DNA of 62,604 bases from Candidatus Multiplicimicrobium inquinatum (GCA_002344825.1 DDUN01000034.1:15171-77774), one strand, 5' to 3'. Positions 9,001 to 42,097 are shown, numbered from the stretch's first letter. Numbers and translations are program-made. The notes: generated by a model from the letters alone, not told the origin.

Positions 9001-11902
9001 TAAAAATTTGAAAGCTCTTCCAAAGCATGACAAATATATTAAGATTAACCCACTCTCTCCATTGGCCCGCTATAGAGTCTGATAGAGTTGTTACGAATAT
9101 TTCAGGATCCGTAAAATTTACCGCGCTTTCATTTTGAGGCTGAATCGCGGCATACATTATCTTCGCCGCCGTTTCTGCTTCTCGCTCAGTTAGGGTATCA
9201 ATATCCATACCCAAATTTTGATAAATTTGGAGCAAAACAAATTCTCCCACATAATGGAAAAATCCATAATCTGCATCACGCGCCATTTCAATCATTTGAT
9301 TCACAAACGACGCGCCTAAAACCAAGTTCTTTTTTCCCGCAAAAACAACAAGCTCTTCAATAAGCTTTTTTTGATTTTCAGAATTTATCCGCAAATCATT
9401 AAGCTCTTGTATAGATAGGCCCTTTTCTCTGATAAAGCTTAAAAGTAATTCGCCTATTGCCGCATTCGCTCTGAATTTTCCTGAATTAAATTTAGACTGT
9501 TTTACTTTTACTACATTTTCAAAAGCAAGCGCATAAGCCTCCATGACACCCAGGTTCATTGTTTGCTTTGGTATGTCAAACCCATAGTAAGTATGAAGAG
9601 CATGCCCAAATTCATGCGCAAGTGATTGTGAGATTAAAGAGTCGCGACTGTTTTCACGATCAATTGTCATCCTGGAGCCCCGCATATATGAGCCTCCTCC
9701 ATCCATGAAACGCATATCTATTTCTTCCAAAATAGCGCGGTGCTCTTTATCAGGTATTAAAACTAAGCTCATAAGATATCGAAAAAGATCATGCGCCTGC
9801 CGTACAGCGACTTGATAACCGGGCTCATTTTTTTGGTTTTTTATTGCGTTATTAAAAGCCGCTATTGAGCCCTCCTGTGCTTCAGAACGAAATTTAATTT
9901 CAAATTTGCGGCCGTTATATAAAATTTCAAATTTTTGTCCGTTAAACAGCCCTTTGTTCAATTGCGCCGCAATTCGATTTCCGTCAAAATTCTTTCCCTT
10001 CAAAGCATCACGGATTGCATACTCAATTTGTTCGACAGAAAAACCGGCTTGATCTGGATTCAGCCCTGCTTGATTCAAGAGCGACCAAATTTCTACAGTT
10101 TGATTATCAACCGCCTGACGCTGCCCGCTAAAATTCGATTTTCCAAGCATGACATCTCGATAAAGGTTTGATTTCTCAACTTGCGTGAGCCGCGGAGTAA
10201 TCGTCCCGTAACTGATTTCTTTTTCGCGGAAGATCTCACGGAGACCTTCGGTGTGAAATCCGCCGGTCATTAAAATCGCTCGGTCGGTGGTCTCGAGCTC
10301 TTTCGCCATTTTTTCATAAAAAACTTCATCACGCCTAATCGCAAGATCGTAGAAAGAAAAGGCATTCTCAAAAGCGGTTAAAATTTGTTGCTGATAATCG
10401 CTATGACCGGAGCCCGAAACCCCAAGAGTGCGCAGCTCTTTAGTCCCCTCCGGTGTCTGGCCTTGGACCTCTTGGCTAAGCGATTTCACCCTTTGAAAAA
10501 GATCGGCGGGAGCCAATGCCTCTTTTCGTGAAATCACTTTTTGCCATTCCTCACGCGAAAGCTCAAGGTTGAGAAGTTTACGCACAAGTTCCGCATCTTG
10601 AAAAAGATTGATTAAATCTTTTTCGCGACCAGAGGCAGGAGCCCTGAGCCCCGAAGATCCTTCCTCTGCACTCCGGTCTCCGGCATCCGGGCTTGTTTCA
10701 AGCAATCTATCAAAAAGCTTTCTTATCTCCCCAAATAACGCGGTCGGTTCAATCTCATATTTCAAAATCAAATAGCCTGTGTAGAGTGCGAAGTTCGGAT
10801 AATTCGAAAACTTCAGCCCCTTCGGTCCCGCTTCTTCCACCAACTTCTCAACAAAAAATCGCGGCAAACTTTCCATCTTTCCCGAGCTCGCGCGGATGCG
10901 GTTCATGTTGATGCTCTTTTCATCAAACCTTTCCAAACCTTCGATCAGCTCTGATGAAACGCCATTCGCCTTGAGCCAGTCCAACATTTGTTTCTTTTCA
11001 ACTTCGGCAGCTTCATGAGCCCGGAGCCCAGAACCCCGAACCCCGAGAGTGCTCAGCTCTTTAGTCCCCTCCGGTCTCTGGCCTCCTGTCTTCGACCTAG
11101 ATTGTTGGTTCAATTTTTTTTCCATGTTCTGCAGAACCAACAATCTCGTCAGTTGCGGCCATTCGATCTGAGAATACAATCCCCGCAAATCAAGCTCTGC
11201 GCTTTCCTTCGCAAGCCTGGCTAAGCCCTCCACAAATGGAATAAATTCACGATGCCCTTTCTCAAATTTTTTCCACTCCGCAATAACTTTACGGGTTTCA
11301 GGCGGCAGAGTTTTGCTCGCTAATTTGTCTAATTCACTTTCAAGTCCGCTGACAAACTTCGCCGTCTCGGCTTCCCGGCTGTATACCGCTTTCAACGCTT
11401 CGTAGTTCTGACGATAAAGATCCGCGTTTTCAATACCCACTCCCCTCGCTCCGCCTTTCTCATCGCTTAGCAAAAACCAATCCGCGCCTGTGATTTGTCC
11501 GCGTTTCGCAAGCTCATCCCAAAGCTTCTTGTTTGTCTCTGCGTCAGAAAACAATTTTAAATAATCGGGGTTTAATTCTTCGGAAGCGCCTTCTACAAAA
11601 ATCGTCTTAAACCCATAGTTTTGATTGAGATAACTCATTAAATCGCGGATCTTGCTTTGTGCTTCGTAATTGGTGTGCGCGTTTTGAATCTGTAGAATCA
11701 TTTTCGGGTTGGGCCGCGCGGGTGCTTCCCAAAACTCCTCCACACTTGCAAGTTCAGCGGGGATATCGATTTGAATCAGTTTGGGTATTTCCGTTTTGGC
11801 TGAAAATTCAATACCCATTCCGGCAACATCCGCGAAGCAGGTGTTCACCGTAAACAAACTCAAAACCAAAACTGAAATTAGCTTTTTAAACCAAACGTTC
11901 AT
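1..11902 (-). CDS. Giant multidomain secreted/membrane protein A. The 5' end is complete and the 3' end runs off the window (at least 3,967 aa).
   Basis: Not in the ORF track. ATG at 11902..11900, with an in-frame stop upstream at 11924..11926. I read every plus-strand triplet starting at positions equal to 2 mod 3, from 11900 down to 2, and found no TTA, CTA or TCA. The N-terminus MNVWFKKLISVLVLSLFTVNTCFA looks like a signal peptide. Motifs seen, in N-to-C order: IQNAH (His codon 11675..11677) and GGFHT (His 10253..10255), both shared with giant B; HEFGH zinc-peptidase motif at 9602..9616; CPBP intramembrane protease motifs EExxxR at 7394..7399, FxxxH (His 7295..7297) and HxxxN (7154..7168); class I SAM methyltransferase motifs VLEMGIGSG at 6050..6076 and NPPW at 5855..5866; several TM blocks around 3200-5350; an internal Tat-like TRREAIRR plus hydrophobic stretch at 3035..3103; a NAGPA-like phosphodiester glycosidase pattern (RRVAIGYD...GMSTDSF..ELHAWL...AMFVDGGTTG) at about 2380..3020; an FHA signature (LIGRGSSNDLIVQDASVSRSHLVL) at about 1466..1708; and a kinase-like fold (EEFIDG hinge, SDIRYQN, IDLGGA) at about 620..1400. 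Confidence 0.85.
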   Translation of the reverse strand, partial: MNVWFKKLISVLVLSLFTVNTCFADVAGMGIEFSAKTEIPKLIQIDIPAELASVEEFWEAPARPNPKMILQIQNAHTNYEAQSKIRDLMSYLNQNYGFKTIFVEGASEELNPDYLKLFSDAETNKKLWDELAKRGQITGADWFLLSDEKGGARGVGIENADLYRQNYEALKAVYSREAETAKFVSGLESELDKLASKTLPPETRKVIAEWKKFEKGHREFIPFVEGLARLAKESAELDLRGLYSQIEWPQLTRLLVLQNMEKKLNQQSRSKTGGQRPEGTKELSTLGVRGSGLRAHEAAEVEKKQMLDWLKANGVSSELIEGLERFDEKSINMNRIRASSGKMESLPRFFVEKLVEEAGPKGLKFSNYPNFALYTGYLILKYEIEPTALFGEIRKLFDRLLETSPDAGDRSAEEGSSGLRAPASGREKDLINLFQDAELVRKLLNLELSREEWQKVISRKEALAPADLFQRVKSLSQEVQGQTPEGTKELRTLGVSGSGHSDYQQQILTAFENAFSFYDLAIRRDEVFYEKMAKELETTDRAILMTGGFHTEGLREIFREKEISYGTITPRLTQVEKSNLYRDVMLGKSNFSGQRQAVDNQTVEIWSLLNQAGLNPDQAGFSVEQIEYAIRDALKGKNFDGNRIAAQLNKGLFNGQKFEILYNGRKFEIKFRSEAQEGSIAAFNNAIKNQKNEPGYQVAVRQAHDLFRYLMSLVLIPDKEHRAILEEIDMRFMDGGGSYMRGSRMTIDRENSRDSLISQSLAHEFGHALHTYYGFDIPKQTMNLGVMEAYALAFENVVKVKQSKFNSGKFRANAAIGELLLSFIREKGLSIQELNDLRINSENQKKLIEELVVFAGKKNLVLGASFVNQMIEMARDADYGFFHYVGEFVLLQIYQNLGMDIDTLTEREAETAAKIMYAAIQPQNESAVNFTDPEIFVTTLSDSIAGQWREWVNLNIFVMLWKSFQIFIKNIFIGKQAGFTEFKTPQNMTWVKLPRKHLQYQASGTTANVSIAAAAAEQVAAEQTQFLESVARLIVRVNSSEINEGAVGVTIFENRVLKQFVSELREMVVFQKTLRSKLIQYAISKGEIYPISVNMLLKSRSEFRAPAWVQEYEIAHSSGNESIKIWLDQELEESLLKLQSGTSITIFGSAAIYFLLAARGALKESPLKDIASDLDLVVRQNPGEHDVADALSAFAARITPVEWLDELTQQNYTINQLFLNVQVKENGGQKYLQIKLDDDVGSSSDFKIISNALDDLSNLRLIWGGTGSVSLNRALRGLRAIFRYGLTPQEQTVALMKAGLDAADPVGDQEAVQVRAIFKLLATPENRKILADLDFFRGKLKERLFFELSVASQNQTWSEFKENWSIPDGEDNELIREAREIFSGIEELKALAASFRSEARTELTSSAGTQSSESVEEVLGGRSEMPAEGAVSWSNIGSILKNRINTEFQFVREQIRVFAPALVIVFMLIVVIPVSLSLLGALGLSAATASILSSIILAPIIEEIMFRKLIFKKMMDSGMGFLASASASAFLFAVIHGVLFGAGGIAVTAYIFLQLFSAGVTYAYLYHRTGNLLAPMAMHSLTNSFILLGIGLGDPLISKIPIIIEFIATISIFTAFSIKLKNTAWFTGLIGSEADRVRSEARPGEVISEDGILNLENLLAAVDQAVQAVLPGAVIFIDGSAASLEADGKIDTRLINDLDMVLAVPESIVPINPVEMVEDELVRLWPQYFFNVELPRSGFRRVIKGQRQPLVMRRLALRLSEGQDQPFLRIDIPLITASSSKLAQQETAELDIGSAKRILRQDWNLLPAERFVKNYLYLENLVGEKLQTAELKAASSAKLKDYGSATEEYWAEMKGLIPQGRIAELSKAFDKPRNDQIKAIIAARGFAEKFSKFDVRSEMRPQQAGQVVPVLINKGDQITGLVRGVIAQIVQSAGKQGNDNIRVLEMGIGSGVLTKELQSAVRNPQQIQFIGFDINPSAVQAAKEALGDEFDARESDLFSAVRDGEKFDVIFWNPPWYSEASGGNLALAKNDPGFETLRRFLGEASQYLKPNGKVFLILPEVSMGEIWEDTEKNYTIERADGYKTTNYAVGLYELTPARSEIRDEDFDPDSIFEEIQKMITAVNEQRYGDAEALTTAFGRKHLFEGELVSRITIGLARLEAEYSDSLKREIIGDMLRLNPQIERDSSEQAYVVPVLLGALGAVGGLGLILPAVFAFAPYLTALVVAAGVIGGLIYFTRNHIKSLKASSLNPNTQTTLQWVAQFLLQRLGIEEKQADVSAISPEQKLNETISLEASRSEARVIPFLKKAAIAAVIMIALAKFAPLVGVYLAGIALVVGAVQTLTEWWGAGTSNSEKKVGVKEGIRLEVLIPGTPEQILQEKIKPWIYIVLALGYFLVMTVVHAISVGDFLAQGQQKDKTAAMALQVEANLGSRNFSENAKLVSGSIMSVIDQIYPSASEQEKKDLHDLALFQTGMESGLFQYADQKNWKEAGHPSIDIAKGIFQHEVTRSRTLGDHVMTWLGYPSKEGDVRRIDQEFLAKKLELTSQGESQPSYKAIVELREAAIKRFPNDAGLQAEYIARALAYRVMQLDLMDDYELDAFFFFVKEKRVKSRMAKNGDTLRDMAQNLEDGVFNDKYFRTKPSPASKKQEIADAIKDHTFGYGGRQGWNVVLATAVSEPQANTSSRVASVDEILALPKWDSERGFLEESLLFPTLDQPAVARQDLPAVARTPSAVESELVATVPLEVFSSELAQVENQVPSANLSWYQREIALPFAQWAARIAPDGGLPVQVFFAGAVLYLIGALFRAAIFNFKKTPSSYSNMTTAVGRSSMSLALSGSVYAYSVVGVELANKWIGTNILIGRLTTAELVMVIEAPILIFFAMLIFGKIKYGKEFALGRVFAKGFLPREAFAPKPRSEKEVVSARSEARGVAQPLTRREAIRRSLLFAAGIGTGGLVANYGLKQVNIGINSPDLASTTSSGDLFFDLRSWNIEVMRFEDAQNDSDAQIISPANFFLEDKQPTGFLRLQEEEPIVDFNHNLSEKAMAKAMFFIDGTGRPHIFDYQKYAENPELYGVQLYPIGFQAGPWIKIGEDLNLGIEVWHKGLQGGRRVAIGYDRLGRFFFKEFYGPDFMGKMGMSTDSFMTELHAWLSRNSIESAMFVDGGTTGFGVGQKTPPYVIVARSKGRSEMRVADQSPEEIADWVVDLSQGTKNKTEEWSAAGFPGPFSNYPLFMREFPVERFHAVLSVLRARKEYDAGKWFAKSMLDSLLGYGMQNTEFLADLPQYYDYFNLNDANPESEFNKNLDFFERRTAAVQYGVSTALKEQVLKLAFEAFGVRRDPNEEYEMEPKFDAEGHSFRNQFVRDLNLAFMIALKSAGEKGILWDPALLPFLFQLSNSNSVMRIRNGGYAGELDVIVQVSGQQSKFTAARNKNEVLIGRGSSNDLIVQDASVSRSHLVLRRDKDNPVKFRLNFTGKNRPLLWPDAERSSLDQRRSEMRYEVDTLSFLDGGVPGATTRSVMNVLRSPRFQDIENVKEFFRRLGYEELDLNLNGTARIFNGYDGTSKYGFRIDFGRVSGRSLSLMFKVERVAGTIPSEETADLKKISHQYVPMILSEGQTQDGLHWMIEEFIDGIQFSEVLEESELTLDEYRGYLRTVLGVGKDLDFKPPSDIRYQNFIWQKDRKKMILIDLGGARFDLEDSAKHRVYFLYTLWATANDNGVINTHQIAADLFHDLWSDKAVEFSAQVRADLSSYVSPTNMVSDSAFTDTNFKSWFDGFSKALRARSEMRVFLDSNGYLQTEPVSYDFFNALAAANDVSEAAKIVKKEISNVAAELRQLIQQNGFIPNKIGNGERSVFNTQELREKEKIGLNDADLLALLQSDKEEMLALAESYGQEQGHSFTVDKINEKIVDRMVDILAEAIWTYVKRHEAWVEWGRRLQALDSFLDKQEEAELSAAVAVFDVGQFLSSSG

Positions 11903-12167
11903 TATCTTTTTTGTGCCAACACACTATATATGCGGTTAACTAAGTTTCTCTTTCTTAAAAAAATATAACCAATGGAATTATTAAAATAAATTAAAAATGC
12001 TAAAATGATAGTTTTTGATAGTTAATGCTATATATAAATCACGCTTTTGACCAAATCCAATCCCTCCCTTGAGCTTACCTACTCTTGACCCCCAATTTAC
12101 ATGTTTTGCCAAGACAGAGGCCGATACATGAGGCGAGAATGCCGCACTTAAAAAAAGGAGGATTCCT

Positions 12168-15802: not shown

Positions 15803-17539
15803 TTACCCGGTAACAACGAGGCGGATCTCGGCAGGTAACTTTCGCGCCAACGCGCGAAAAACTTCCCCGCGAATCATATTCACCAAAGCACTTTTCTTCG
15901 TCGTTCCGATCACCACGGTCTTAACACTTAATGCTTTTGCGGCATCCGCAATCAACCGTCCGGGATCCGCGCCAATTTGCCAAACCGGTATCGCAGTGAT
16001 GCCATTCTTTTCTAATTCCGCTTGCGCTGTTGAGAAAACGTGAATCGATTCGGGAGAAGGCTCCACTTCATCCAGCAGCACCGAGCTTGCCGGAGCATCA
16101 TCCACGTAACTTAAATAGACCGTGTTTTCCCCTTTGGCAGTAGCGCGCATCACGGCTTCTTCAATTAAGTTCATATTCATATATTTAAGAGCCACCATCG
16201 TCGAAGCTGGATAAAGAGAGGCGAGCTCGCCGGCCTCTTCGACTGTCAAAACATTCAGCATGCCTTCGGCTTCTTCCACTGGAGTCTTCACAGGAACACG
16301 TTTCGAAAGCGCACTAATCAAAAATCCGCCGCCCACAATCGCGACAGCAAACAAAAGCGCCTTAGGCTTTTGCATACAAATCGTTAACTCCACCAAAAGC
16401 ATAATCAGCGCGGAGCCGCGCAGCAAAATCTTTTCCCACGGCTTCATGCTTAACCGGGAATTAGTCGCGCAAAAAGCTAAATTAAGCCCAATCGCACCCA
16501 CAACGCCCACGGCATAAAGTTCAGCCAAACCCAAAACATTCGGCTCAACGACAAGCACAATCACGGGAATTAGAGTTCCAATCGCAAGCGGAAGCCAGGG
16601 CATCCCAAAACGATTCAGCTGCGTAAAAACAGACGGCAATTCACGGTCTTTCGCGAGCGAAAATTGAATATTTACAAGCGCGCCAATCGCGGTGTTTGCG
16701 GCCGAAAGCAAAAGCAAACCAAAAGTGACCGCGATCACCTGCCCATACAAGGGACCCGCGTAATGTTCCGCGATCGTGCGCATCATTGCCTCGGCATGGT
16801 TTCCAATTTCGAGACCGGGAATCGCATTCATCGCAATTCCCAACAAAAAAGTCAAAATGGAAACTTCAAGAAGAACGGGAAAAATAGCTTTCTTGGCTGT
16901 TTTTTCAACGGGGTTTTGCATAATGCCGGTCATATTCGCCACTGCTTCAACCCCGGAGAGAGCCAAAACAATGCCAACAAAAGAACTCCAGTTCTCAAGC
17001 AAACTTCCCTTCGGCATGGTCAATTCGACCTGAGGTAATCCGGGAACAGTGTAGAAAAATAAAACAAAAGCAGACAAGGAAGCGGCGATCGCAATCAAGG
17101 CGGCAAAACTACCGACTTTCCCGGGACCAATCCAATTAATCAATCCAATAATCACGATTGAAATAACAGCCCATAATTCCGGATCGGGAACGCGTAAATA
17201 GTGGAAAGCTTCAATTGCGCTGATAGCCGCCGTAACGGTATACCCCGCTACAAGCAAAAATGCGCCGACCATGGCAAGAACTCTTGACCGGCTTTTTGCG
17301 GCGGAGTAAACCCCGCCTCCATCAGGAAAGAGCCGGCAAATAATCACATAACAAACGCCCACTGCGGCTGTCAACAAAGACATTAGTCCAAGAAAAAACC
17401 AAGAGGCGTGGCCGGATAAAGCGAATGCGATACCGAGCACATACGCTTTGCTCGTACCCCAATCGCCGTAAAGAAGAGCTCCCGCCTGATACCATTTAAG
17501 GTCGCGCGGGCGGTTAACCCTTTTCAGCATCAATGCCAT
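15803..17539 (-). CDS. APC-superfamily permease with a C-terminal universal stress protein (Usp) domain
   Basis: 578-aa ORF with about 12 hydrophobic segments. It has FPDGGGVYSAAK and LYGDWGTSKAYV motifs reminiscent of the KimA/APC family. The C-terminal roughly 140 aa end in VVIGTTKKS...GEVF...RLVV, which is Usp-like. Confidence 0.8.
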   Translation of the reverse strand: MALMLKRVNRPRDLKWYQAGALLYGDWGTSKAYVLGIAFALSGHASWFFLGLMSLLTAAVGVCYVIICRLFPDGGGVYSAAKSRSRVLAMVGAFLLVAGYTVTAAISAIEAFHYLRVPDPELWAVISIVIIGLINWIGPGKVGSFAALIAIAASLSAFVLFFYTVPGLPQVELTMPKGSLLENWSSFVGIVLALSGVEAVANMTGIMQNPVEKTAKKAIFPVLLEVSILTFLLGIAMNAIPGLEIGNHAEAMMRTIAEHYAGPLYGQVIAVTFGLLLLSAANTAIGALVNIQFSLAKDRELPSVFTQLNRFGMPWLPLAIGTLIPVIVLVVEPNVLGLAELYAVGVVGAIGLNLAFCATNSRLSMKPWEKILLRGSALIMLLVELTICMQKPKALLFAVAIVGGGFLISALSKRVPVKTPVEEAEGMLNVLTVEEAGELASLYPASTMVALKYMNMNLIEEAVMRATAKGENTVYLSYVDDAPASSVLLDEVEPSPESIHVFSTAQAELEKNGITAIPVWQIGADPGRLIADAAKALSVKTVVIGTTKKSALVNMIRGEVFRALARKLPAEIRLVVTG

Positions 17540-18160: not shown

Positions 18161-21100
18161 TTATGCTGAAGTTTGAGTTACCTTCACAACGTCATAGAGC
18201 TGACTAATCCATGCTGAAATCTGAATCCAACGCATTCCGGGCAAGTTTAACCGCTGCGGCTGACCTAAAACTAAAACGTGTCCCGCTGCCATCGGCGCGG
18301 AAAGCAAAAGCATTTCATCATCGGCCTCAGAGGGTTTTTCTGGTGATTCAACCTGAATCACATTTGTCGGATCAAACTCTGCCCCCAAATAATTTCGCAT
18401 CCAGCTTTCAGAAGATGCCTCCGAAAACTCAAAACTAAAAATGCCACGGCGTATTTCAGCGGCCAGCTCACGCGAATAAAGCGCTCTGTCGATTACGTTT
18501 TCCGCGGGCGCCCGCATAACAATCCGAACTCCAGCAGGCATCTTCGCCATAAACCGGCGAATCCATTTCGGATCATAAGGACGTTCAAAAATCACAACGC
18601 CGCTGTCTGAAATCTGATTGCCCAAAATGCGCGACGAAGCTTCCTGTAAAGTTCGCTTCGGCAATGCCATTAGCTCACGCATTTCAGAACGCATCTGATC
18701 AGCCTTGATACCGGAACGCATTGCGTCTTGCGCCTGCAAACCAGATAACAAGCCCGCCCCTTTCACTTCTGATCTCTCCGCAAGAGAAACTTGTCTAACT
18801 TCACTGCGGCTAAATAACTGATAAGCCACAGCCTTCACAAACTCCTTCGGCTGCGAACGATATCGGTCAAAAAAATCCGCCATCTCATCCGGCTTTATTT
18901 TTTCTCCGTACGCGTTCTCATCCGAATGTAAAGCAGCTGACAAAGAAACAAGCTTTTGCCGATAGGGCTCTGCGATTTCAGGCTCCATTCCGTTTAACCC
19001 GCGTGAGTCTAGTTCTCGCCGAATAAATTCGGCCGTCGCATATTGAATCTCCGGTTTAGCCGAAATCCGGCCGCCTTCAAAGCGCACCTCTTTTTCTACT
19101 TCCGCAAATTGGCGTTCTTTTTCTTGAATAAATTCTCGCTGAGCTTTTTCTAAGGCAGCCTGAGCCTCTTGAATCGCACGATCCATGGCATCAAGACGCG
19201 GATTTTTCTTCATGCGCGGCGCGGATTGAGCGGGCGGACCTTTCCGATTGGGATCAGGAAAGTGCATATAGTCCGGCGGCTCAATGCGTTTAGGCTCTAG
19301 CCCTTCGATCCGAATCGGCCGCAAGATACTGTCCATGACCTGTAAATGCGGCAAAAGATGGTCCGCAGACCGTGGTGACGCGGTCGTGTGCGTTCCCGCG
19401 CCGGAACGTGTATTGTTCGGGTTAAACTTAACGATATAGCTCCAGGGGCGATACCAAACCGGGCGCGCGGTATAAGCGGCAATACTGTGAATCAAAACAT
19501 ACCCGGAAAGAACCAAACGAAAATCATCCAACGCCAACCCAAACAACTGCTGAGCCAATCTTCTCTTGGAAATATCTCCTTTAGTGGCTGTGCTAATCGT
19601 AATATGCTGCTGTGAAGCTTTTTCACTTTTGGATCCTTCGTCACCGATTAAAACATTGTGCGCCCCCACCAACGACAGACCGAATAAATAAGAGTAAGGA
19701 AACAAAACCTGCGAAAGAATCGTAATCAATTGCTTGAAAACCATTTGAAGCGCATCGAGGTCATCCGCCAAGGCCGGCACACCGCTTTTATTAAGAAAGC
19801 CAAGATTAATCCAAGCTCGGTTTCCGCCAATTTGATCATCTAACATTCTATCCGCGCTGGTTGCCTCCGCATGAGCTCCATTAATCCCATAAGATTGAGA
19901 AAAGCTTTTACGGAACACTGTTTCTAAAATCTTGCCCACTTCTTCCTGAACTCCGACAAAAGAAAAAAACTTCATTCCGCCGCGATCAAAAAAACTTCTA
20001 GTATTCCCATCCCGCAAGCTTACAAGCCACCGATAACCCAAAGTAAAAATGGGAAAAGCAAAAAACATATAAAAAAGAGCGTCGCCCAATCCCGGAAGGA
20101 AAAATATCTGGGCAGCAAAAAAAGTCAGGGAAAAAGTCCAGACGGCCGCTTTTTGATAGTCGCGTGTCTTGCCTGAAAACGCATGACGCTGGGTTGATTG
20201 ATAAACGGCGATACTCCATGCCGTAATTGCAATCACGGTAAAAATAGCCAAAAATAAAGTAACCGGAGAAAGCGCTAAAACGGCAGACACATAGCCTCCC
20301 AAACCATGCAATACCGCAAATAGACTGGGCACTTTCCCAGCCACGGTTAAGCCGATATAAACCCATGCCGCCGCCAAAGAAACAGTGCTCTCTGAGATGC
20401 GGCGCCCAAATGATTTTCCGGCTTTGACTAAGTTCGTATGCGTATTTTCGTCATCGCTTTTTTGACCCAACACCGCGGGAGCTGTTTGATCAATAAAATG
20501 ATCCCATTCTTTTTCAAGAAAATTAATATCGTCATCCGTAAACTCACTTCCAAAAATCGGCCGCCCGGCGATTTGGGAAGGCAAGCTCCGCACAGCTGAT
20601 GAAACGAGCTCCATAAAAGTTGCGCGGGTAGAGGCGTAGGCCCCCATTCCCAGTTCCGTCGGACTCCACTCGGTCCGTATAATTAAAGTTCGCTCAAGTC
20701 CCACAGCGCGGCTCATTTGACTGTGCTCATCCGCCGTCGCGACAAAAAGCTCTTCGATCACACGCGCAAGCATGAGAGCCCCTGTCGAAGAGTTAAAATG
20801 CTGCCCGGATCCGGAAGAAGCAATCGCAACCACAAAAGGATTGGTCAGGCTCAGCTGCTCTTTAAAGCCTTCCACATCCATCTCTCCCGGAGGCAAAAGT
20901 TTTGAAGCATCCTCTTTATCTCTTAAATGCGCATTCGCTTCGCGGTCAATCTCGTTGGAATCGTAAACACGTGTCTGAAAATGCGGGTAAACTTTTTTTA
21001 GAATTTTTTCAATCATTTTCAAAATTTGCTCATTTTTTTCTTTTCCGAAAAAAACCGCGTCATAACTGTGATGAGGCTCTTCGTCTGCTTGCGGCAGGAA

Positions 21101-24100
21101 CGACTGAATCAACTGAAAATCCAGCCGATTCTCCTTCAAAGCGTTCAGCAGCGGCTCTTGGCTTTTCAATAAATTAGCGGCCGCTAAATCTCGATAGTCA
21201 GATAAGTCGTATTCCGACAATAATTTAATTGAAAATTCTGTCACAGCATTTCTTATGGTTTCCTGGGAAATAGATTCTTGATTATGAGATGAATTCAAAT
21301 GCCTTCCCGCGATTTCCAAAGCAAAAGGCTTGAGCACGCTTTTCACTACATCAGGATTCACGATTAAATTACTGATATCACGGCGGAACGCGGCCACCAA
21401 AATTTGTCTCGCCGACTTTTTTTGCTCTTCCGTCGCATTTACCAAGCCCAAATCCGCTAAAAATGATTCCATTTTGACTTCCGCCCATTTCATAAAAACA
21501 TCGTCTCCCAGCCCGCTTTCAATACCGACGCGGCTCTGCCGCATAATCAACCGTCCGATTGGCCCGGCAAGAATCACTTTGATAATTTCCAGCATCACAA
21601 AGAAATTATGTTTCTCTGCCGTGTAAGGAGGCATTTTGGGACGCCTCAAATCGCGCGGGTCTTTAAATTCATCGCGGATAACTTTCAAATAAGCCGGAAT
21701 GGAATTTAATTCAAGCTGCGCGGGGTCTTTGTTTTGAGAAACTTCAATCGGCTTAGCGGGACGGAGCCGGGCATAGATTTCATCCTGGGTTAAAAATCGC
21801 CCGGATGCGCCGTTTTCATCTTTCAGCGTCAGCGAATAAACTTTGATACCGATAGTCTCCCCGTCATGCGTCACCTCAGCAACTTCACCCAGCCCGTTTA
21901 AATCCAAAAGAAACTCATACCCATCCACGCGCCCGGCATTGGCCTCAGAGTTAGACCCTACCTGAACCATGCCGTTTTTTTTACCAAAACCCAAAGTAAT
22001 GTTTTGTCCCAGCGAAAAAGAAATTTTTGTGCGCGGCTGAAGCGAAGAATACGCGTTAACACCGGCCGAACCGCGCACATTTTTGGAAATATAAATCCAA
22101 GAATTTAAAAGGTTATGTCGCAGAAAAGCATAAACGGCCGTTTCAATGAATTGCGCGCTTTCCTTTTCACCCATTTGTTTGAAAAGAGCCTGAGCAGAGC
22201 CGGAAGCTTGATTCATTTGAGTTAAAATTTTTTCCTGCAAACCGCCCAAGTCCTCGTCCGAAATGTCGGCCAAATCCGTAAGACCGCGAATTTTGTCCAT
22301 TCCGCCTGCTTGAGCAAAAGCTTGTTCAAGAAATGCGGCTAAAACTTTCACTTCGCCCGGTTTTAATGCGTGGTTGGGAGCTTGTGCTTCTTCAGCATCG
22401 TTTTTGGGAATAAAACCGCCGAAGTAATATTCAAGATCGGGCGCCACCGAGGCGTAATGGGCAAACTGTACCGTGTCTTCCCAGCGGCCCTGAACATAAA
22501 CTAAATCCTGAACCCCTGATAATTTGGGAGAGTCTCCCGTTGTCGGATTGTAAATACCTTTTATTCTTTTGAGCACCCAGGCAATTTGCTGATTCGAATA
22601 AGCTTTTCCATCCAACTCTATTTCGAGCGCTTCTTTCTGTCTGCGGGAAAAGAAGGCGCGAATCCGCTCAGAAAAAGTTTTTACCAAGTCATTAAAATCG
22701 CCGTTATGCCCCAAAACGACATAAACTTTTTTAACAATATATTCAAACCCTTTCGCGGTGCCGGTTAAAACTTTAGACTCACGCTGTCCCACCCAGCCAT
22801 GCGGATGCGCACCGTTTTCAATCGCGGTAATTGAAAAATCGCCTTTTTTGGCACCTGCGGTCGGAAAACGCAAATGGTCGCCAATATGAATGTAAAAAGG
22901 AATCTTCATCGCTCTGGCTCTTTTTAAAACAAGCGGCTTAAATTGATTCTCAAAAACATCTGCGGCGGTTTGCCGGGAATCAATGTAGTATTTTTCGTGA
23001 ACGATCTCCTGGTTTCCGTTTAAATCTTCCATAATGGCAAAAAATCCGATGGCGATTTTTCCGCGTTTTTCAGTAACGATGATACTTTCTTTCAAACGGG
23101 CGAGATATTTATCTAAGTCCGCCGGCTTTTTCACAAATCCCATGATGGAGGTATTACCGCAAGCCGCAAGCCAGTCCTCGCTCGGCGGATTAAAAATATC
23201 GGAAATAGAAGCGGCAATCTTGGCGAGAATGCCGCCCGAGACACCTGTGTAAAAAAACATAATCGGAATAAATAAAAGCAAAGTTTTTCCGAAGAAAATA
23301 ACCAGTGCGGCAAAAGCCATCACGCCCAAAACAAAACCCGCGATTCTTACGGCTCCAACCCCTTTTGTTTCAGATTGATCCAATTGGACATAAGCGGAGG
23401 GCATAGGCGTAAACGGCATCAACCCTGCTAAGAGTCTGAAAATATTACGATTACCGGTCCAGTTGTGAAAATTTTTTATGGTTTTTACCTTCCCCATAAA
23501 AGCGCTGGCAATCAAATGCCCCCACTCGTTAAGCATCATCCCCGCTAAGTAACCGGCACGCAGAGAAATCAAAAGAAGCGCTCCCGCCGCGGCTGTAAGT
23601 CCGCTTGTTGATAAAGCAGCGGCTAAATCCAAACCTAAAACAACGGGCAAAGTCATACCTAAAAACGGAAGGCTCAAAAAGGAAACGACTGCGACAGTAA
23701 GCACAATTTCAAAAACCGGAAACGTCCAACTGCTTGTCTTACCCGAAAAAACAGGCTCTGTATCAAGCTCGGCGGTATTCAACCCATCATCCGTAACCTT
23801 CTCATCCAACTCAACGGGAATGGTATCGGGAACTCCCTGCCGTATATGTTTCATGCGCGCTACTACGGCCTCCCAATACTCAAGAGCACCCGCGCCAAAA
23901 CCCTCCGGATTAAGGTTTTGAATTTTTGACAGCCTCTTGCTGATTTCTTCCAATTTTTCAAATCCTTCGTCACCCCCCCATGTTTTAATAACCGCGAGAT
24001 CCGGCAAGCCTTCAAACCACCGACCTGCCTCTAAAGAACCGCCTCTTTCTGCTTCGGTTAAGATCGTTTTATGAGGCAAAACAGGTGCCTCCTCTACAAT

Positions 24101-27013
24101 TTCAGGCAAAAGAATTTTTACACTTTCAGATTGTGCCAGCGGGGCTTCTTTACTTAAGGATTTTTTTTCACCTGCCTGAATTAAGGCTTCAGCCCACAAA
24201 AGAGCTCCATTTTGAAACCCCTCTTTAAAATCTGTCCCTGTTTTTTCGCCCAAAATGATTTTTATGCGCCCATAACGCAATAAAAAATCAGGAATTTCTG
24301 CCTGAAGCAGCTGCGCTTCTATTTCCCCCAAATTAAGCCGGCGGATCATTTCAGCGGACATCTCTTTCTCAGCGAAAGAAAGTGCCTGGCGCCAATTTTC
24401 TATTTCATCGGGAGAACTCGGAAGATCTATTTGCCGTCCGGTTTTGCCCCCCTCTTGAATCAGTCGATTGTGCTCTCCCAGCAAATCAAAAACAGAGAAA
24501 CTATTTTTTTTATCGTTAACACCCGCTGCGCTCAAAGCGGCCAACGAAAAAATTAAATTCTGCCACAAATCTCTTTTTTCAACTAAAACCTGAGAATCTA
24601 AAAAACGCGGCACAAAATTATCTTCAACTATCCGATTTGTGAACCGCTTGGCAACGCGTTCCGCAACCGCCGCGGCATGCACTCCCTGACTGTGAATGAG
24701 GCTCATCCCGCTCAAATATTCTTCCCAGTAAATAAGCATCATAGCCCGCACCGCCGCGGAGCGATCTTTCCAGTTAGTCGAAAAGCGGATAATTTCAACC
24801 CTGCCGTTTTCATACTTGAAATCAAGCGCCATTCCCGCGGAAGAAATTTTTTGAATTTCATCCGTATTTTTCAAACGCAAAGATTCGGCAAAAACCTCAA
24901 GACGAAGAGCAAGGGCCCGCTTAAATTTTTCGATCTCTTCCAATGCTTTAAAATCACCTGCCCAAGTTATGCGCGCCAAATCGTCATCGCCCCTTAATTC
25001 GGAGCGGGCGGGTAAACTTCTTTTCCAATTTGGCAAAGCCGCTTCAGGAGAGCTCCCGCCTCTTCGAATCCAAACTTCACGGCCGTCAAACCGCATCATT
25101 GACGCGCCTTTTCCTGCCCGCGTTTTAGCGTGAGGCCCCGCTGAGGTTAAAAGCGGTGTTTGCCCCTCTGTTCCCAAAAACCAGAAAACAGTATCTTGTC
25201 CATCGGGTGAAATCCAAACCCGCGACCGATCTGAAAACGAATCAAGTTCTCTTAGCGCGGCAATCGCTGTATCGGACAAAACAAACGCGGATGATGTTAA
25301 AATTTGCTCAGTTTCCACCGGACGGCCGGAAAGCGCCGCCGCGGTGCCGGAAAGCAGCGCATAAAGCGTTTCCGGAAAATTTTTCTCCATTCGCCGGGGA
25401 GTCTGCAGCTGCAATTGCGAATGCGATTTGAATTGCGCGTCTTCTAAGTTTTCAGGTCTAACCCATTCCAGCTTAGAAAGCTGAGAGCTCATTCGTTTTT
25501 CGTAAATGGTCTGATACTTTGAAAAATCAGTGGTTTTAATTTTGGGGCGCACCACTTCATAACTGATTCCTTGCTCACGCAAAACACGCAAAAGACCGGC
25601 CGTATGAAATCCACCGATTACAAGTGCGCCCACCTTCTGATTCTCTTTCTTCAGTTCGCTTATGAAGTTTTGAGCCAACGCTTCATCACGGCGCATCGCG
25701 ATATGATAAAAACTCATCGCGGCAGTCATAGTTTCCGACAAAACTTTTTTCTCATCCGAGCTAAATACAGTTTGATTCGCTTTCCCCAATGCTTCCGCTT
25801 TAAACTCATCGCGACGCGAAAGAAACTCCTCATAATCTGAGGCCGTTAAACTGAGCATCACCAAAGAACGGGAAATATCAAGATTCTCAAGACGCCGGAC
25901 AATTTCTTTCTGACCGCTTTCCGGGCAGGCTTTTTCGGTTAACTCTTTTTCAAGCCTTGCGACTTCATCGAAAAGCCCTGTTCCTACCCGGCGCATAAGA
26001 TAGGCCGCCTTCAAAGCCGAGACAGTAACCGGGTAGTTTTTAAGCGCCGTAGGGCTTTCCTTCCAAAGTAAAACTTCTGTTTTAAGATCCGCATCAAGCG
26101 ATTCTCCGCGTAAAACTTTCTCACCATATTCCGCCAGCTTGAGTCCAAGCGCCCCCTTTTTCTTTAAACCACGAATTTCACTTTCCATGATTTCCGGGTT
26201 TACTTGATCCGAAAGCTCATGCGCTTTGCGCCAAAAGTCAAACGCCGGATAACGCCCCGTCAAACGATTATCCAATCGCATACTTTGAAGATTCAAAAGA
26301 TGCTTTTGCCAGTCTCCGTTTTCATGAGCCTGACGGGCGTGTTTTCTGAAACGCAAATATTCCACCGGTAAAATCTTCAGAGCTTCTTCTTCCGTTCGGC
26401 TGCGTACGGTATTCAGTATCTTCAGCGCATCATCACGTTCGTTTACAACTTTGAGAAAAGCAACACGGTCCGATTCGTAAAGCCCCATATCTTCAACTCC
26501 GCGAAGCTTAAGCGAGGGATGCTTTGTCATCTGTAAATATTCAGGCCCGCCGATCACAGCTTCTTCAAGCAAAGTTTCGGCAAGCATCGTACGGGCCGCA
26601 CGGTTGGGAAACGCAGCAACCGCGGAATGCGGTAAATCACCTTTGGCTCCCTCAAGACCGACGAACTGAAGTCCTAAGCGGGAAACCCAAAAATCAATAA
26701 TCTTGGCGGCAGATTTCTGAGCTTCAGGAAGCGCGTGAGCGTCCTGAACAATCAGGGCGCGGAAAGGGGCCTTACCGGAAAAAGATTCAACCCGCTCCCC
26801 CATTTGCGAAGGAACCTGAGGGGGATTAACCCAATTCATATCATTCAAAAGGAGCAAATCAGGATGGTTCGAAAAAATAGGGTCAGCTTGTTTTACGGAC
26901 GCGGTTCTTGCAGAAAACCATTCCGCGGCGGGCATACTCCATACCGACTCCGCAAAAAAAACGGGCAGCAGCAATAAAGCGACAAACCTAAAAAATGTCT
27001 TCCCTTCCCCCAT
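18161..27013 (-). CDS. Giant multidomain membrane protein B (about 2,950 aa; the ORF stays open upstream to 27313)
   Basis: The track ORF is 18161..27313. The likely start is the ATG at 27013, which gives MGEGKTFFRFVALLLLPVFFAESVWS (signal-like) and is preceded by a G-rich stretch. The N-terminal module is paralogous to giant A: IVQDAH (His 26735..26737) and IGGFHT (His 25604..25606). A central TM block contains LNEWGHLIAS, which resembles a degenerate M50B-like HExxH. A class-II (Ntn) glutamine amidotransferase-like region begins at AACGNTS (Cys codon 23159..23161) and contains GAHPHGW and GHNGDFNDL. An SIS-like motif VVAIASSGSGQ lies near 20800..20840. Further TM blocks follow, and RSE-x-R motifs occur near the C-terminus. 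Confidence 0.85.
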   Translation of the reverse strand: MGEGKTFFRFVALLLLPVFFAESVWSMPAAEWFSARTASVKQADPIFSNHPDLLLLNDMNWVNPPQVPSQMGERVESFSGKAPFRALIVQDAHALPEAQKSAAKIIDFWVSRLGLQFVGLEGAKGDLPHSAVAAFPNRAARTMLAETLLEEAVIGGPEYLQMTKHPSLKLRGVEDMGLYESDRVAFLKVVNERDDALKILNTVRSRTEEEALKILPVEYLRFRKHARQAHENGDWQKHLLNLQSMRLDNRLTGRYPAFDFWRKAHELSDQVNPEIMESEIRGLKKKGALGLKLAEYGEKVLRGESLDADLKTEVLLWKESPTALKNYPVTVSALKAAYLMRRVGTGLFDEVARLEKELTEKACPESGQKEIVRRLENLDISRSLVMLSLTASDYEEFLSRRDEFKAEALGKANQTVFSSDEKKVLSETMTAAMSFYHIAMRRDEALAQNFISELKKENQKVGALVIGGFHTAGLLRVLREQGISYEVVRPKIKTTDFSKYQTIYEKRMSSQLSKLEWVRPENLEDAQFKSHSQLQLQTPRRMEKNFPETLYALLSGTAAALSGRPVETEQILTSSAFVLSDTAIAALRELDSFSDRSRVWISPDGQDTVFWFLGTEGQTPLLTSAGPHAKTRAGKGASMMRFDGREVWIRRGGSSPEAALPNWKRSLPARSELRGDDDLARITWAGDFKALEEIEKFKRALALRLEVFAESLRLKNTDEIQKISSAGMALDFKYENGRVEIIRFSTNWKDRSAAVRAMMLIYWEEYLSGMSLIHSQGVHAAAVAERVAKRFTNRIVEDNFVPRFLDSQVLVEKRDLWQNLIFSLAALSAAGVNDKKNSFSVFDLLGEHNRLIQEGGKTGRQIDLPSSPDEIENWRQALSFAEKEMSAEMIRRLNLGEIEAQLLQAEIPDFLLRYGRIKIILGEKTGTDFKEGFQNGALLWAEALIQAGEKKSLSKEAPLAQSESVKILLPEIVEEAPVLPHKTILTEAERGGSLEAGRWFEGLPDLAVIKTWGGDEGFEKLEEISKRLSKIQNLNPEGFGAGALEYWEAVVARMKHIRQGVPDTIPVELDEKVTDDGLNTAELDTEPVFSGKTSSWTFPVFEIVLTVAVVSFLSLPFLGMTLPVVLGLDLAAALSTSGLTAAAGALLLISLRAGYLAGMMLNEWGHLIASAFMGKVKTIKNFHNWTGNRNIFRLLAGLMPFTPMPSAYVQLDQSETKGVGAVRIAGFVLGVMAFAALVIFFGKTLLLFIPIMFFYTGVSGGILAKIAASISDIFNPPSEDWLAACGNTSIMGFVKKPADLDKYLARLKESIIVTEKRGKIAIGFFAIMEDLNGNQEIVHEKYYIDSRQTAADVFENQFKPLVLKRARAMKIPFYIHIGDHLRFPTAGAKKGDFSITAIENGAHPHGWVGQRESKVLTGTAKGFEYIVKKVYVVLGHNGDFNDLVKTFSERIRAFFSRRQKEALEIELDGKAYSNQQIAWVLKRIKGIYNPTTGDSPKLSGVQDLVYVQGRWEDTVQFAHYASVAPDLEYYFGGFIPKNDAEEAQAPNHALKPGEVKVLAAFLEQAFAQAGGMDKIRGLTDLADISDEDLGGLQEKILTQMNQASGSAQALFKQMGEKESAQFIETAVYAFLRHNLLNSWIYISKNVRGSAGVNAYSSLQPRTKISFSLGQNITLGFGKKNGMVQVGSNSEANAGRVDGYEFLLDLNGLGEVAEVTHDGETIGIKVYSLTLKDENGASGRFLTQDEIYARLRPAKPIEVSQNKDPAQLELNSIPAYLKVIRDEFKDPRDLRRPKMPPYTAEKHNFFVMLEIIKVILAGPIGRLIMRQSRVGIESGLGDDVFMKWAEVKMESFLADLGLVNATEEQKKSARQILVAAFRRDISNLIVNPDVVKSVLKPFALEIAGRHLNSSHNQESISQETIRNAVTEFSIKLLSEYDLSDYRDLAAANLLKSQEPLLNALKENRLDFQLIQSFLPQADEEPHHSYDAVFFGKEKNEQILKMIEKILKKVYPHFQTRVYDSNEIDREANAHLRDKEDASKLLPPGEMDVEGFKEQLSLTNPFVVAIASSGSGQHFNSSTGALMLARVIEELFVATADEHSQMSRAVGLERTLIIRTEWSPTELGMGAYASTRATFMELVSSAVRSLPSQIAGRPIFGSEFTDDDINFLEKEWDHFIDQTAPAVLGQKSDDENTHTNLVKAGKSFGRRISESTVSLAAAWVYIGLTVAGKVPSLFAVLHGLGGYVSAVLALSPVTLFLAIFTVIAITAWSIAVYQSTQRHAFSGKTRDYQKAAVWTFSLTFFAAQIFFLPGLGDALFYMFFAFPIFTLGYRWLVSLRDGNTRSFFDRGGMKFFSFVGVQEEVGKILETVFRKSFSQSYGINGAHAEATSADRMLDDQIGGNRAWINLGFLNKSGVPALADDLDALQMVFKQLITILSQVLFPYSYLFGLSLVGAHNVLIGDEGSKSEKASQQHITISTATKGDISKRRLAQQLFGLALDDFRLVLSGYVLIHSIAAYTARPVWYRPWSYIVKFNPNNTRSGAGTHTTASPRSADHLLPHLQVMDSILRPIRIEGLEPKRIEPPDYMHFPDPNRKGPPAQSAPRMKKNPRLDAMDRAIQEAQAALEKAQREFIQEKERQFAEVEKEVRFEGGRISAKPEIQYATAEFIRRELDSRGLNGMEPEIAEPYRQKLVSLSAALHSDENAYGEKIKPDEMADFFDRYRSQPKEFVKAVAYQLFSRSEVRQVSLAERSEVKGAGLLSGLQAQDAMRSGIKADQMRSEMRELMALPKRTLQEASSRILGNQISDSGVVIFERPYDPKWIRRFMAKMPAGVRIVMRAPAENVIDRALYSRELAAEIRRGIFSFEFSEASSESWMRNYLGAEFDPTNVIQVESPEKPSEADDEMLLLSAPMAAGHVLVLGQPQRLNLPGMRWIQISAWISQLYDVVKVTQTSA

Positions 27014-27532
27014 AAAGCCCCCCCAGGCTATAACTTCAGACGCGGTTAAATAAACTGCGCCGGATTTTTCATCACAGACTGAATATCCTGACTTGTTGCT
27101 CCGAACCGGCATGCCAACCCCAAAGCGTCTCTTGCTTGTTCGTAGCGTTCGTCCAGCAAGCACTTCCCAAACTGTTGAAGAGCCGTTGTTTTTAAAAAAG
27201 ATTTGAGTCCTAAAATCCGGTGAGAATGTTTCATCTTCATTAAGCACCTCCTTAGCTACAAACTTTTTAAAACAATTTACTTCCTGTTTAATAATAAGCA
27301 TAGACCATGCCAACTTTTAAAATTTCTATAAGTTGTTTTATAGTAATAATTTAAGATAAATAACAAAAATGGAATGGCACAAAAACTACAAGTATCCTTG
27401 GCTAAAATTTTCATTTTTGATGAAAAGAAGGAATGCAGGCAGGAGGTTAAAACCAAGAAATGCTAGAAAAAGATAGAAAGTGCTTTGCGGATTATGAATT
27501 CAATTTTGTGATGAGAACACGGAACAGGGCAA

Positions 27533-39916: not shown

Positions 39917-39930
39917 ATACTTGAACAGCC

Positions 39931-40896: not shown

Positions 40897-41157
40897 TGTT
40901 TTTTCCTTCAGAGTAAAAGTGTTTCTAAAGACTTGGACTATTCTATGCTAAAAATATTCTGTTCGCATATAAAAAACAAACCTGAAATTTTCAATCGTTA
41001 CGTTTGGTTTCATCGAATACAGGTCGTGCAAACAGGCGCTCAAAAGGGCTTAGATGCAAGGAGCGGACGAATAATCGAGGAGGCGTATGTGCTAATACGT
41101 TGACGAGAATTGTGAGGATCGCGACGCCGCAGATGAGCCGTTTTCAGCGTCTCGTGC

Positions 41158-41376
41158 TTAAGGACGCTTAAGCGTTTTAACTGCCCATACTATAAAGCGC
41201 AGAATTAAAAACGCAGGATAACTATACAGCCCCGCCCAGAAAAGAAAAGGCACCAATTTCTCTCCCATTTCTCCGAAAACGGAAAAATTAATCATCGCGA
41301 TAAAACACAAAACGCCCCAGGCCACAAACCCGATCAAGATCAACCCTTCCCTGGCCACCGTTTTTTTAAATCCCAT
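41158..41376 (-). CDS. Small two-TM membrane protein, hypothetical
   Basis: 72-aa track ORF with two hydrophobic helices. Confidence 0.45.
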   Translation of the reverse strand: MGFKKTVAREGLILIGFVAWGVLCFIAMINFSVFGEMGEKLVPFLFWAGLYSYPAFLILRFIVWAVKTLKRP

Positions 41377-41462
41377 TTATGATTTTCCGGTTATTGATCG
41401 CGTGTTTTGGTTCTTAAGCTCGAAAACATTTCTCCTAGCTCCGAAGATTATACTGCAAAGGT

Positions 41463-41527
41463 GGTCGCAGTTTGTGACTCCCAGTCATAAAGGTTATCGC
41501 AAATTGCGATAACCTCCCCTTATGACT
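41463..41527. repeat. Nested palindromes upstream of the ORF6N gene
   Basis: Three elements: GGTCGCAGTTTGTGACT (41463..41479); GGTTATCGCAAATTGCGATAACC (41492..41514, perfect); and an outer pair AGTCATAA (41483..41490) with TTATGACT (41520..41527). Confidence 0.7.
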
Positions 41528-41580
41528 ACTTGCTGATTAATTATATTTACATATGATTAATACGCATATATAATTTAGGC

Positions 41581-42093: not shown

Positions 42094-42097
42094 TTTT

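Follow-up and report, generated by a model that had tools for sequence, protein, structure and literature searches.

The locus described here raises the question of how a glutamine amidotransferase could become active when its catalytic cysteine lies deep inside a giant membrane protein. The locus is part of a stretch of 62,604 nucleotides from Candidatus Multiplicimicrobium inquinatum (GCA_002344825.1 DDUN01000034.1:15171-77774), referred to as the window in the following, and consists of a minus-strand open reading frame at 18161..27313, which is called Giant B. The mechanism of N-terminal nucleophile (Ntn) enzymes, such as the class II amidotransferases, demands a free N-terminal cysteine. 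In Giant B, the candidate nucleophile is residue 1285 of the protein counted from its likely start. Profile comparisons, a predicted structure, and residue conservation indicate that this cysteine opens a diverged class II amidotransferase domain, and that the domain belongs to a module with a protease-like membrane block in front of the cysteine and a probable SIS-type domain behind it. The best explanation for this arrangement, to which a probability of roughly 0.7 is assigned, is a membrane-tethered GlmS-type amidotransferase that is made as a masked precursor.

Reading frame and position of the motifs

Giant B consists of 3,050 codons without interruption. Residues are numbered from the TTG codon at 27313 (residue 1), up to which the frame is open, and the likely start is Met101 at 27013. 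This start had already been chosen in an initial annotation of the window made from the sequence alone, and the alignment with the closest homologue, P0002, speaks for it, since residue 1 of P0002 falls on Met101. The resulting coding sequence from Met101 to the stop codon (18161..27013, minus strand) encodes 2,950 residues. An identical Giant B protein is carried by four contigs, and the two places shown for it are independent samples (the Logan assembly of SRR1506983 and JGI 3300013502). The reading frame is therefore real and no assembly artefact.

All motifs quoted in the initial annotation are present in the frame at the places given for them. These are MMLNEWGHLIASAFMG at residues 1259-1274 (23492..23539), DWLAACGNTSIMGF at residues 1380-1393 with the codon of Cys1385 exactly at 23159..23161, HLRFPTAG at residues 1480-1487 (22853..22876), GAHPHGW at residues 1501-1507 (22793..22813), VVLGHNGDFNDL at residues 1532-1543 (22685..22720), and VVAIASSGSGQHFNSSTGALMLA at residues 2161-2183 (20765..20833). 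The distance between the cysteine and the last, SIS-like motif, estimated before as about 780 residues with the motif at about 20800..20840, was measured as 776 residues. A hydropathy scan revealed two hydrophobic blocks, at residues 1195-1365 and at residues 2330-2440. The order of the motifs, including the cysteine, is kept in both close homologues that span the region (P0002 and P0003). Since this order is conserved in two close homologues and in a family with 677 members, the motifs are more than a chance resemblance.

Identity of the amidotransferase domain

Residues 1385 to about 1860 (21734..23161, minus strand) make up the class II (Ntn) glutamine amidotransferase domain, as delimited by a family profile, AlphaFold2 and Foldseek analyses, and residue conservation. 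It begins with the putative nucleophile Cys1385 (codon 23159..23161) in a CGN motif. A profile constructed from Giant B, P0002, and P0003 was used for an exhaustive search of 1.84 billion representative proteins, which yielded 677 representatives at E<=1e-3, of which 102 had E<=1e-30. In an alignment of 31 family sequences (A4), numbered with the nucleophile as Cys1, 18 columns are invariant, among them C1, G2, R33, G34, R63, H96, R98, T101, H119, H152-N-G-D155, D210, and S211. The key residues of Giant B itself are R1417, H1480, R1482, T1485, H1503, H1536-N1537-G1538-D1539, and D1594.

When the A4 profile was compared with PDB sequences, it matched class II amidotransferases only, namely the glutaminase domain of GlmS (1xff, E=1.5e-6), human GFAT1 (E=2.5e-3), and PurF (E=0.1). 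These HMMER alignments are collinear and place H1480, R1482, T1485, and H1503 of Giant B on H71, R73, T76, and H86 of GlmS, respectively. By the order of the motifs, N1537-G1538 and D1594 would correspond to Asn98-Gly99 and Asp123 of GlmS. Single-sequence and library-based comparisons were less informative. The curated profile of GATase_6 was matched by one of the 31 relatives (E=0.0018), Pfam gave no match with any of eight family representatives, and a MAFFT alignment of the domain of Giant B with a manually entered sequence of E. coli GlmS was uninformative because of insertions.

The predicted structure points in the same direction as the profile. AlphaFold2 applied to A4 resulted in a model with a pLDDT (predicted local distance difference test) of 90.2 and a predicted template modelling score (pTM) of 0.89, in which the first beta-strand opens at residue 2, in line with the four-layer Ntn fold, whose nucleophile stands where the central beta-strand begins. 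The two halves of the modelled fold are separated by a helical region of about 170 residues (about residues 1574-1745), which is far longer than its equivalent in GlmS. A Foldseek search with this model returned 48 matches at E<=1e-3, all of which were GlmS, GFAT1, or PurF, and the next match was noise with E=0.13. The best match was again 1xff (E=2.1e-8), with template modelling scores of 0.61-0.63 normalised to the 238-residue target. A further AlphaFold model of the membrane block together with the amidotransferase, calculated from three sequences, had a pLDDT of 41 and was discarded.

Conservation was counted among the family sequences aligned at each position. The cysteine and the following glycine (Cys1 and Gly2) are each present in 189 of 189 sequences, so that the conservation of the cysteine, proposed at the outset as a check, is borne out. 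Almost complete conservation was also found for Arg33 (213/214), Arg98 (223/225), Thr101 (224/225), Asn153 (228/229), Gly154 (229/229), and Asp210 (228/229). Apart from Arg33, these residues presumably correspond to the nucleophile of GlmS, to the residues binding the carboxylate and amino groups of glutamine, and to the oxyanion hole. The retention of glutamine-site and oxyanion residues speaks for a functional glutaminase and against an inactive remnant. By profile and predicted fold, the domain of Giant B is thus a diverged class II (Ntn) glutamine amidotransferase closest to the glutaminase domain of GlmS, which agrees with the Ntn-amidotransferase reading of the initial annotation.

Distribution of the family

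The initial annotation had regarded the arrangement in Giant B as unusual, but it turned out not to be peculiar to this protein and represents the normal architecture of a widespread family. A stand-alone form of about 1,250 residues is widespread in Cyanobacteria, where it accounts for 427 clusters and was located at 80 loci in named genomes. With the exception of one protein with an amidotransferase label in UniRef and a few unnamed ones, these proteins are annotated as hypothetical. They occur in two forms, of which one contains the membrane block, always with an HGxxH motif, while the other has no block and carries a methionine directly before the cysteine (MCGNFG; 10 loci). Two loci are present in some cyanobacterial genomes, for example in Pleurocapsa sp. 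CCALA 161 and in a metagenome-assembled genome of Nostoc. The genes around six cyanobacterial orthologues showed neither a conserved neighbourhood nor a functional hint. Eukaryotic members from the dinoflagellate Polarella and the alga Klebsormidium are labelled in UniRef as 'Glutamine amidotransferase type-2 domain-containing protein'.

The membrane block preceding the cysteine

In Giant B, the amidotransferase domain is directly preceded by a multi-helix membrane block (residues 1195-1384; 23162..23731, minus strand), which ends with Ala1384 and was recognised by hydropathy, by an alignment of 23 sequences of the block (A7), and by a lead from Pfam. Most relatives contain an [HN]ExxH motif inside the hydrophobic block, about 90-180 residues upstream of the cysteine. 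At this site Giant B has N1263-E-W-G-H1267 (23513..23527), in which N1263 replaces the first histidine, and the canonical HExxH is absent. Only five columns of A7 are invariant, namely the glutamate, the second histidine, an aspartate, and then the Cys-Gly pair. Among 155 matches, 82 carry HGxxH and essentially make up the cyanobacterial clade; HExxH is present in 51 of the matches, and NExxH in 11, with Giant B among them. The second histidine and the aspartate are kept in all but one full-length match, and the distance from the aspartate to the cysteine is 11-18 residues in almost all matches, with a mode of 14. The invariant aspartate of Giant B is Asp1372 (23198..23200), which lies 13 residues before the cysteine and which, judging from its position, may serve as a third metal ligand. 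The ancestral motif of the block is HExxH...D, of which Giant B carries a variant.

No Pfam family other than Peptidase_M50 recurred in more than two sequences of the block alignment. Peptidase_M50 was matched by 7 of the 23 sequences, with a best E of 0.0029 over profile positions 4-107 of 221, and the scores of 11-17 bits are all below the curated cut-off of 27.2 bits. M50B was matched by one of the 23 relatives (E=0.51), the block of Giant B itself had no match in Pfam, and a profile of the membrane block matched no site-2 protease among the PDB sequences. The degenerate M50B-type motif described in the initial annotation can thus be retained as an M50-like motif with asparagine in place of the first histidine, but it is not specific for M50B and all matches are sub-threshold.

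The SIS-like domain and the region behind it

Downstream of the amidotransferase, Giant B contains a domain X1 (residues 2085-2320; 20354..21061), which is homologous to an SIS-like domain of the family and degenerate in Giant B. It is followed by the second hydrophobic block (about residues 2320-2432; 20018..20356) and by a domain X2 (about residues 2440-2690; 19244..19996), all on the minus strand. X2 is conserved in about 100 relatives, and X1 and X2, which by their conservation in the family span residues 2085-2335 and 2405-2700 of Giant B, are present in about 100-120 of 152 family sequences. The family consensus of X1 reads TG.E.SLW.GEQF ... SQSGQTFPTL ... RIF...G.RPAEP.TV, which we take to be close to the loops of GlmS. 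The Pfam family SIS was matched sub-threshold by 13 of 24 relatives (best E=2.5e-4), and every other family by one relative at most. With two X1 family profiles, SIS phosphosugar isomerases made up most of the top matches among PDB sequences (E=0.014-0.06). In an hhalign comparison of X1 with the isomerase half of GlmS, taken from a manually entered sequence, only 29 columns around SxSGxT were aligned, with a probability of 17%. At the level of the family, these comparisons make it likely that X1 is an SIS domain.

In Giant B and its close homologues, the three SIS motifs have diverged to GKEKN, SGSGQH, and PTELG. The second of these, S2167-G-S-G-Q-H2172 (20798..20815), occupies the site of the SQSGQT loop of the family, which is the phosphate-binding S-x-S-G-x-T of SIS domains. 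Pfam SIS did not match Giant B itself. Because the motifs are degenerate, canonical binding of a sugar phosphate by Giant B is doubtful. The SIS motif noticed in the initial annotation therefore holds at the family level, where the evidence is weak, but does not extend to intact loops in Giant B. Residues 2450-2560 had been considered by eye as a second SIS half, and this candidate was dropped after comparisons by PDB profile, hhalign, and Pfam had all failed. Of the GlmS-like pair of amidotransferase and isomerase that had been proposed, the glutaminase is retained and the SIS part is weakly supported, while the second SIS half was not detected.

Sequences in front of the cysteine and RSExR motifs

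The N-termini of 189 relatives with an aligned cysteine were surveyed. A membrane block is located upstream of the cysteine in 145 of them, and 12 representatives start at Met-Cys, an arrangement also seen at the block-less cyanobacterial loci mentioned above. Three giant proteins without the block have an RSE[VL]R motif that abuts the cysteine (RSEVR directly followed by CGN), namely P0046 (residues 910-915), P0047 (residues 927-932), and P0051 (residues 612-617). The remaining relatives have short or unclear N-termini. The fact that nearly all relatives with a legible N-terminus either start at the cysteine or place a conserved element right before it argues for proteolytic unmasking. For Cys1385 of Giant B this pattern supports the view, put forward in the initial annotation, that the residue would have to be unmasked by proteolysis, a cleavage deduced from the comparison of relatives.

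RSExR motifs are strongly enriched in these proteins: 136 were counted in 208 collected proteins, whereas the composition of these proteins would predict 8.4. A single giant can contain as many as 10-11, and the sequence around the motifs is invariably unconserved and linker-like. The minus strand of the window encodes 13 RSExR motifs, all within Giant B and a second giant, Giant C. Giant B has RSELR at residues 770-774 (24992..25006), a candidate processing site, and a cluster of RSEVR, RSEVK, and RSEMR at residues 2836-2879 (18677..18808), ahead of a C-terminal domain; all were located by a motif scan. Giant C (2..11923, minus strand) runs off the window, has at least 3,974 residues, and carries ten RSExR motifs. 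It contains an Rce1-like membrane protease domain (residues 1495-1591), a methyltransferase domain (residues 1946-2080), and an FHA domain near residue 3439. The Rce1-like domain is flanked by RSEAR at residues 1403 and 1645 (7703..7717 and 6977..6991), and the methyltransferase domain by RSEMR at residue 1903 and RSEIR at residue 2105 (6203..6217 and 5597..5611). This bracketing of domains, together with the RSE[VL]R motifs that abut the cysteine in three relatives, lends support to the idea of the initial annotation that RSE-x-R motifs are involved in processing. A literature search revealed no paper mentioning the RSExR motif.

Proposed mechanism and alternative explanations

In the proposed mechanism, the module would consist, in this order, of the Peptidase_M50-like block, the Ntn amidotransferase, the SIS-type domain, the second membrane hairpin, and X2. 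After membrane insertion, the bond between Ala1384 and Cys1385 would be cut. Ntn hydrolases commonly activate themselves by an N-to-S acyl shift, and the cut in Giant B could occur by such a shift, with or without the help of the adjacent metal site. The product would be a glutaminase with a free Cys1 that remains tethered to the membrane via the downstream hairpin. Ammonia set free from glutamine by this glutaminase would be passed to an acceptor bound by the part formed by SIS and X2. As in GlmS, a sugar phosphate is the probable acceptor in the wider family, whereas the acceptor of Giant B is uncertain because its sugar-phosphate loops are degenerate.

Several results weigh against this interpretation. 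Neither Pfam nor NCBIfam matched the whole of Giant B or any of five pieces of it, and a phmmer search of PDB sequences with residues 1385-2438 as a single sequence returned noise only. The curated GATase_2, GATase_6, and GATase_7 profiles have no match in Giant B; the initial annotation had proposed Pfam searches of Giant B for these families, SIS, and M50B, and the absence of any match counts, by its own measure, against the assignment. The SIS evidence falls short of significance in every single comparison, the best values being E=0.014 with PDB and the sub-threshold E=2.5e-4 with Pfam, and each of the three SIS motifs of the family has lost its hydroxyl residues in Giant B. X2 showed no similarity in a profile comparison with PDB, in Pfam, or by hhalign with GlmS (manually entered sequence) and with X1, and a full two-SIS isomerase half as in GlmS is therefore not established. 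Finally, the non-canonical motifs NExxH (11 matches) and HGxxH (82 matches) imply that conventional protease activity of the block is not general. If the missing Pfam and NCBIfam matches meant that the resemblance of the motifs were fortuitous and that no amidotransferase is present, neither the matches of the family profile with PDB entries, nor the AlphaFold and Foldseek results, nor the conservation counts would be expected; these refute the suggestion, which is practically excluded.

The alternatives that deserve more attention concern the way in which the cysteine is set free. The membrane block could be a single-turnover intramembrane metalloprotease acting in cis, which cuts before the cysteine without any Ntn self-cleavage, so that the amidotransferase would be activated by insertion into the membrane and by loading with metal. 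This would fit the near-fixed distance of 11-18 residues (mode 14) between the invariant aspartate and the cysteine, the invariance of glutamate, second histidine, and aspartate in A7, and the status of Peptidase_M50 as sole recurrent Pfam match; relatives without the block begin exactly at Met-Cys, and M48 or Rce1-like membrane protease domains are found in other such giants. However, the glutamate is changed to glycine in the 82 matches of the cyanobacterial clade and the first histidine to asparagine in 11 matches including Giant B, the Peptidase_M50 matches all remain below the cut-off (11-17 versus 27.2 bits), no site-2 protease was matched in PDB, and Ntn enzymes are generally known to activate themselves. 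A cut made by the block alone is thus considered rather unlikely. Self-cleavage of the masked amidotransferase precursor, on the other hand, fits because the canonical protease residues are lost in two clades and because it is the default for Ntn enzymes, while the fixed spacing between aspartate and cysteine and the invariant histidine and aspartate argue for some role of the metal site.

The cysteine could also be unmasked by an independent protease with specificity for RSExR or for another site, which would at the same time divide the giant into working pieces, the block serving as an anchor only. This explanation draws on the RSE[VL]R motifs that abut the cysteine in the block-less P0046, P0047, and P0051, on the excess of RSExR over expectation (136 versus 8.4), and on the bracketing of the Rce1-like and methyltransferase domains in Giant C. 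In Giant B, however, the residues before the cysteine are SEDWLAA and not RSExR, no candidate protease gene is present in the window, and the motif was found in no paper. As a general explanation this is unlikely, but since RSE[VL]R abuts the cysteine in three giants, a separate RSExR protease could unmask it in some of them. It is also conceivable that the Ntn domain of Giant B is mainly a self-cleaving device that splits the polyprotein and is no working amidotransferase. An internal cysteine, the degenerate SIS loops of Giant B and two close homologues, and the many RSExR motifs in giants, which suggest processing of polyproteins, would agree with such a device. Yet the equivalents of Arg73, Thr76, and Asp123 of GlmS are retained and near-invariant, although they would be needless for self-cleavage alone, and many relatives start with Met-Cys and have nothing to cut, which makes this explanation improbable. 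A membrane-tethered amidotransferase that is made as a masked precursor, and that may be set free by self-cleavage, by the adjacent metal site, or by a separate protease, is therefore preferred.

The N-terminal scaffold and relation to Omnitrophota-type giants

The N-terminal part of Giant B begins with a hydrophobic segment (residues 101-130; 26924..27013), revealed by the hydropathy scan, which may act as a signal peptide or as an anchor. Behind this segment lies a scaffold of about 450 residues (about residues 165-615; 25469..26821), which was found by alignment to more than 40 giant proteins of 1.8-5.1 thousand residues that share it. Where annotated, these giants belong to Omnitrophota, Elusimicrobia, and Chlamydiota. 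The scaffold has no match in Pfam, and the Pfam enzyme families differ from giant to giant, examples being isocitrate lyase, phosphoglucomutase, methyltransferases, kinases, PEP-utilising enzymes, and M48 peptidase. It is also present in Giant C of the window (22% identity, E=1e-15). At the other end of Giant B, a C-terminal domain (residues 2880-3050; 18164..18676) lies inside a 59%-identical match (residues 2766-3050) to the C-terminus of P0002. These 170 residues, which have no family match and directly follow the three RSExR/K motifs, are far better conserved in comparison with P0002 than the remainder of the protein.

Omnitrophota giant proteins have been described as multi-helix membrane proteins with embedded metabolic enzymes (10.1101/2023.11.21.568195; 10.64898/2026.06.07.730766), and internal cleavage has been proposed for them (10.1101/2023.11.21.568195). 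Giant B has the scaffold, the membrane helices, and an embedded enzyme domain, by which giants of this type are recognised. It is a membrane polyprotein from a bacterium of the Omnitrophota type and contains a single copy of a conserved module that is uncharacterised. With 2,950 residues it is much smaller than the published giants, and the Pfam searches on which those papers relied cannot detect its enzyme. Neither paper mentions an amidotransferase in giants, and glmS is named only as an ordinary gene of the peptidoglycan pathway (10.64898/2026.06.07.730766).

Neighbouring genes

The genes around Giant B in the window have housekeeping or transport functions, and none of them encodes a protease. 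A fusion of an amino-acid permease with a Usp domain is encoded directly downstream (15806..17539, minus strand), and an amino-acid-type ATP-binding cassette transporter, consisting of a fusion of solute-binding protein and permease and an ATPase, further upstream (42901..45046, minus strand). A link of these transporters to glutamine supply would be speculative. At about 37900..42100, the G+C content is 0.40 as compared to about 0.47, and a D12-class adenine methyltransferase, a DndB-like protein, and an ORF6N-domain protein are encoded; this stretch has the appearance of a small islet of DNA-modification genes or of mobile DNA. A third giant of 2,873 residues (53592..62210, minus strand) consists of GLUG repeats with 26 matched stretches and has no RSExR motif. 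Next downstream, a ShlB/FhaC-type transporter with a POTRA domain is encoded (51762..53528, minus strand), and the two are an ordinary two-partner secretion pair that is unrelated to Giants B and C.

Comparison with known systems and implications

GlmS is a soluble enzyme of about 600 residues that begins with Met-Cys. The module resembles GlmS and GFAT in that their N-terminal class II glutaminase domain matches the domain of Giant B best, both in sequence and in structure, and in that an SIS-type domain follows, whose SQSGQT consensus in the family corresponds to the SQSGET loop of GlmS. It differs from them in the internal position of the cysteine behind a membrane block, in the far longer helical region (about 170 residues) between the halves of the glutaminase, and in the separation of its parts by a linker of 85-220 residues and a second membrane hairpin. 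In addition, the second SIS half with the C-terminal tail carrying the catalytic lysine was not detected, and the SIS loops of Giant B are degenerate.

A masked cysteine is also known from class II enzymes with propeptides. In PurF of Bacillus subtilis and in glutamate synthase, the cysteine is exposed after removal of an N-terminal extension, and these propeptides are soluble and about 11-40 residues long. PurF is among the Foldseek matches of the module, but the 'propeptide' of the module is a multi-helix membrane domain with a metal-binding motif, which is preceded by 1,100 further residues in Giant B. Like Peptidase M50 (site-2 proteases such as RseP and SpoIVFB) and M50B, the block has a motif of the HExxH type within a membrane helix, and its invariant aspartate in a later helix is a candidate for the third metal ligand. 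It differs in the motif, which is NExxH in Giant B and HGxxH in cyanobacteria, and in its direct fusion to an Ntn enzyme. We know of no description of an M50-like block fused to an Ntn enzyme, and a literature search for membrane-bound or propeptide-bearing GlmS-like enzymes found nothing relevant. The module thus appears to be a variant of GlmS-type enzymes that has not been described before, in a family that nobody appears to have studied.

For the biology of Omnitrophota, this means that giant proteins can carry enzyme domains that are missed by profile libraries, and Pfam-based inventories of their cargo are therefore incomplete. Because the cysteine must be N-terminal to work, the module also probes whether and where giants are cleaved, a question that is open in the literature on giant genes. 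The family itself, with 677 representative clusters including cyanobacteria and algae, is apparently unstudied; its members couple a glutaminase resembling that of GlmS with a protease-like domain in the membrane, and the spacing between this domain and the catalytic cysteine is fixed. Its stand-alone cyanobacterial form is more tractable for genetics or expression than the giant itself. Tentatively, and with considerable doubt, both lines can be combined: the metalloprotease-like domain may be a built-in pro-region of an Ntn enzyme, which in cyanobacteria, algae, and Omnitrophota would be switched on only once it is inserted into the membrane, and RSExR may be a cleavage code by which Omnitrophota giants would be cut into working enzymes and by which, in some of them, the same cysteine would be unmasked.

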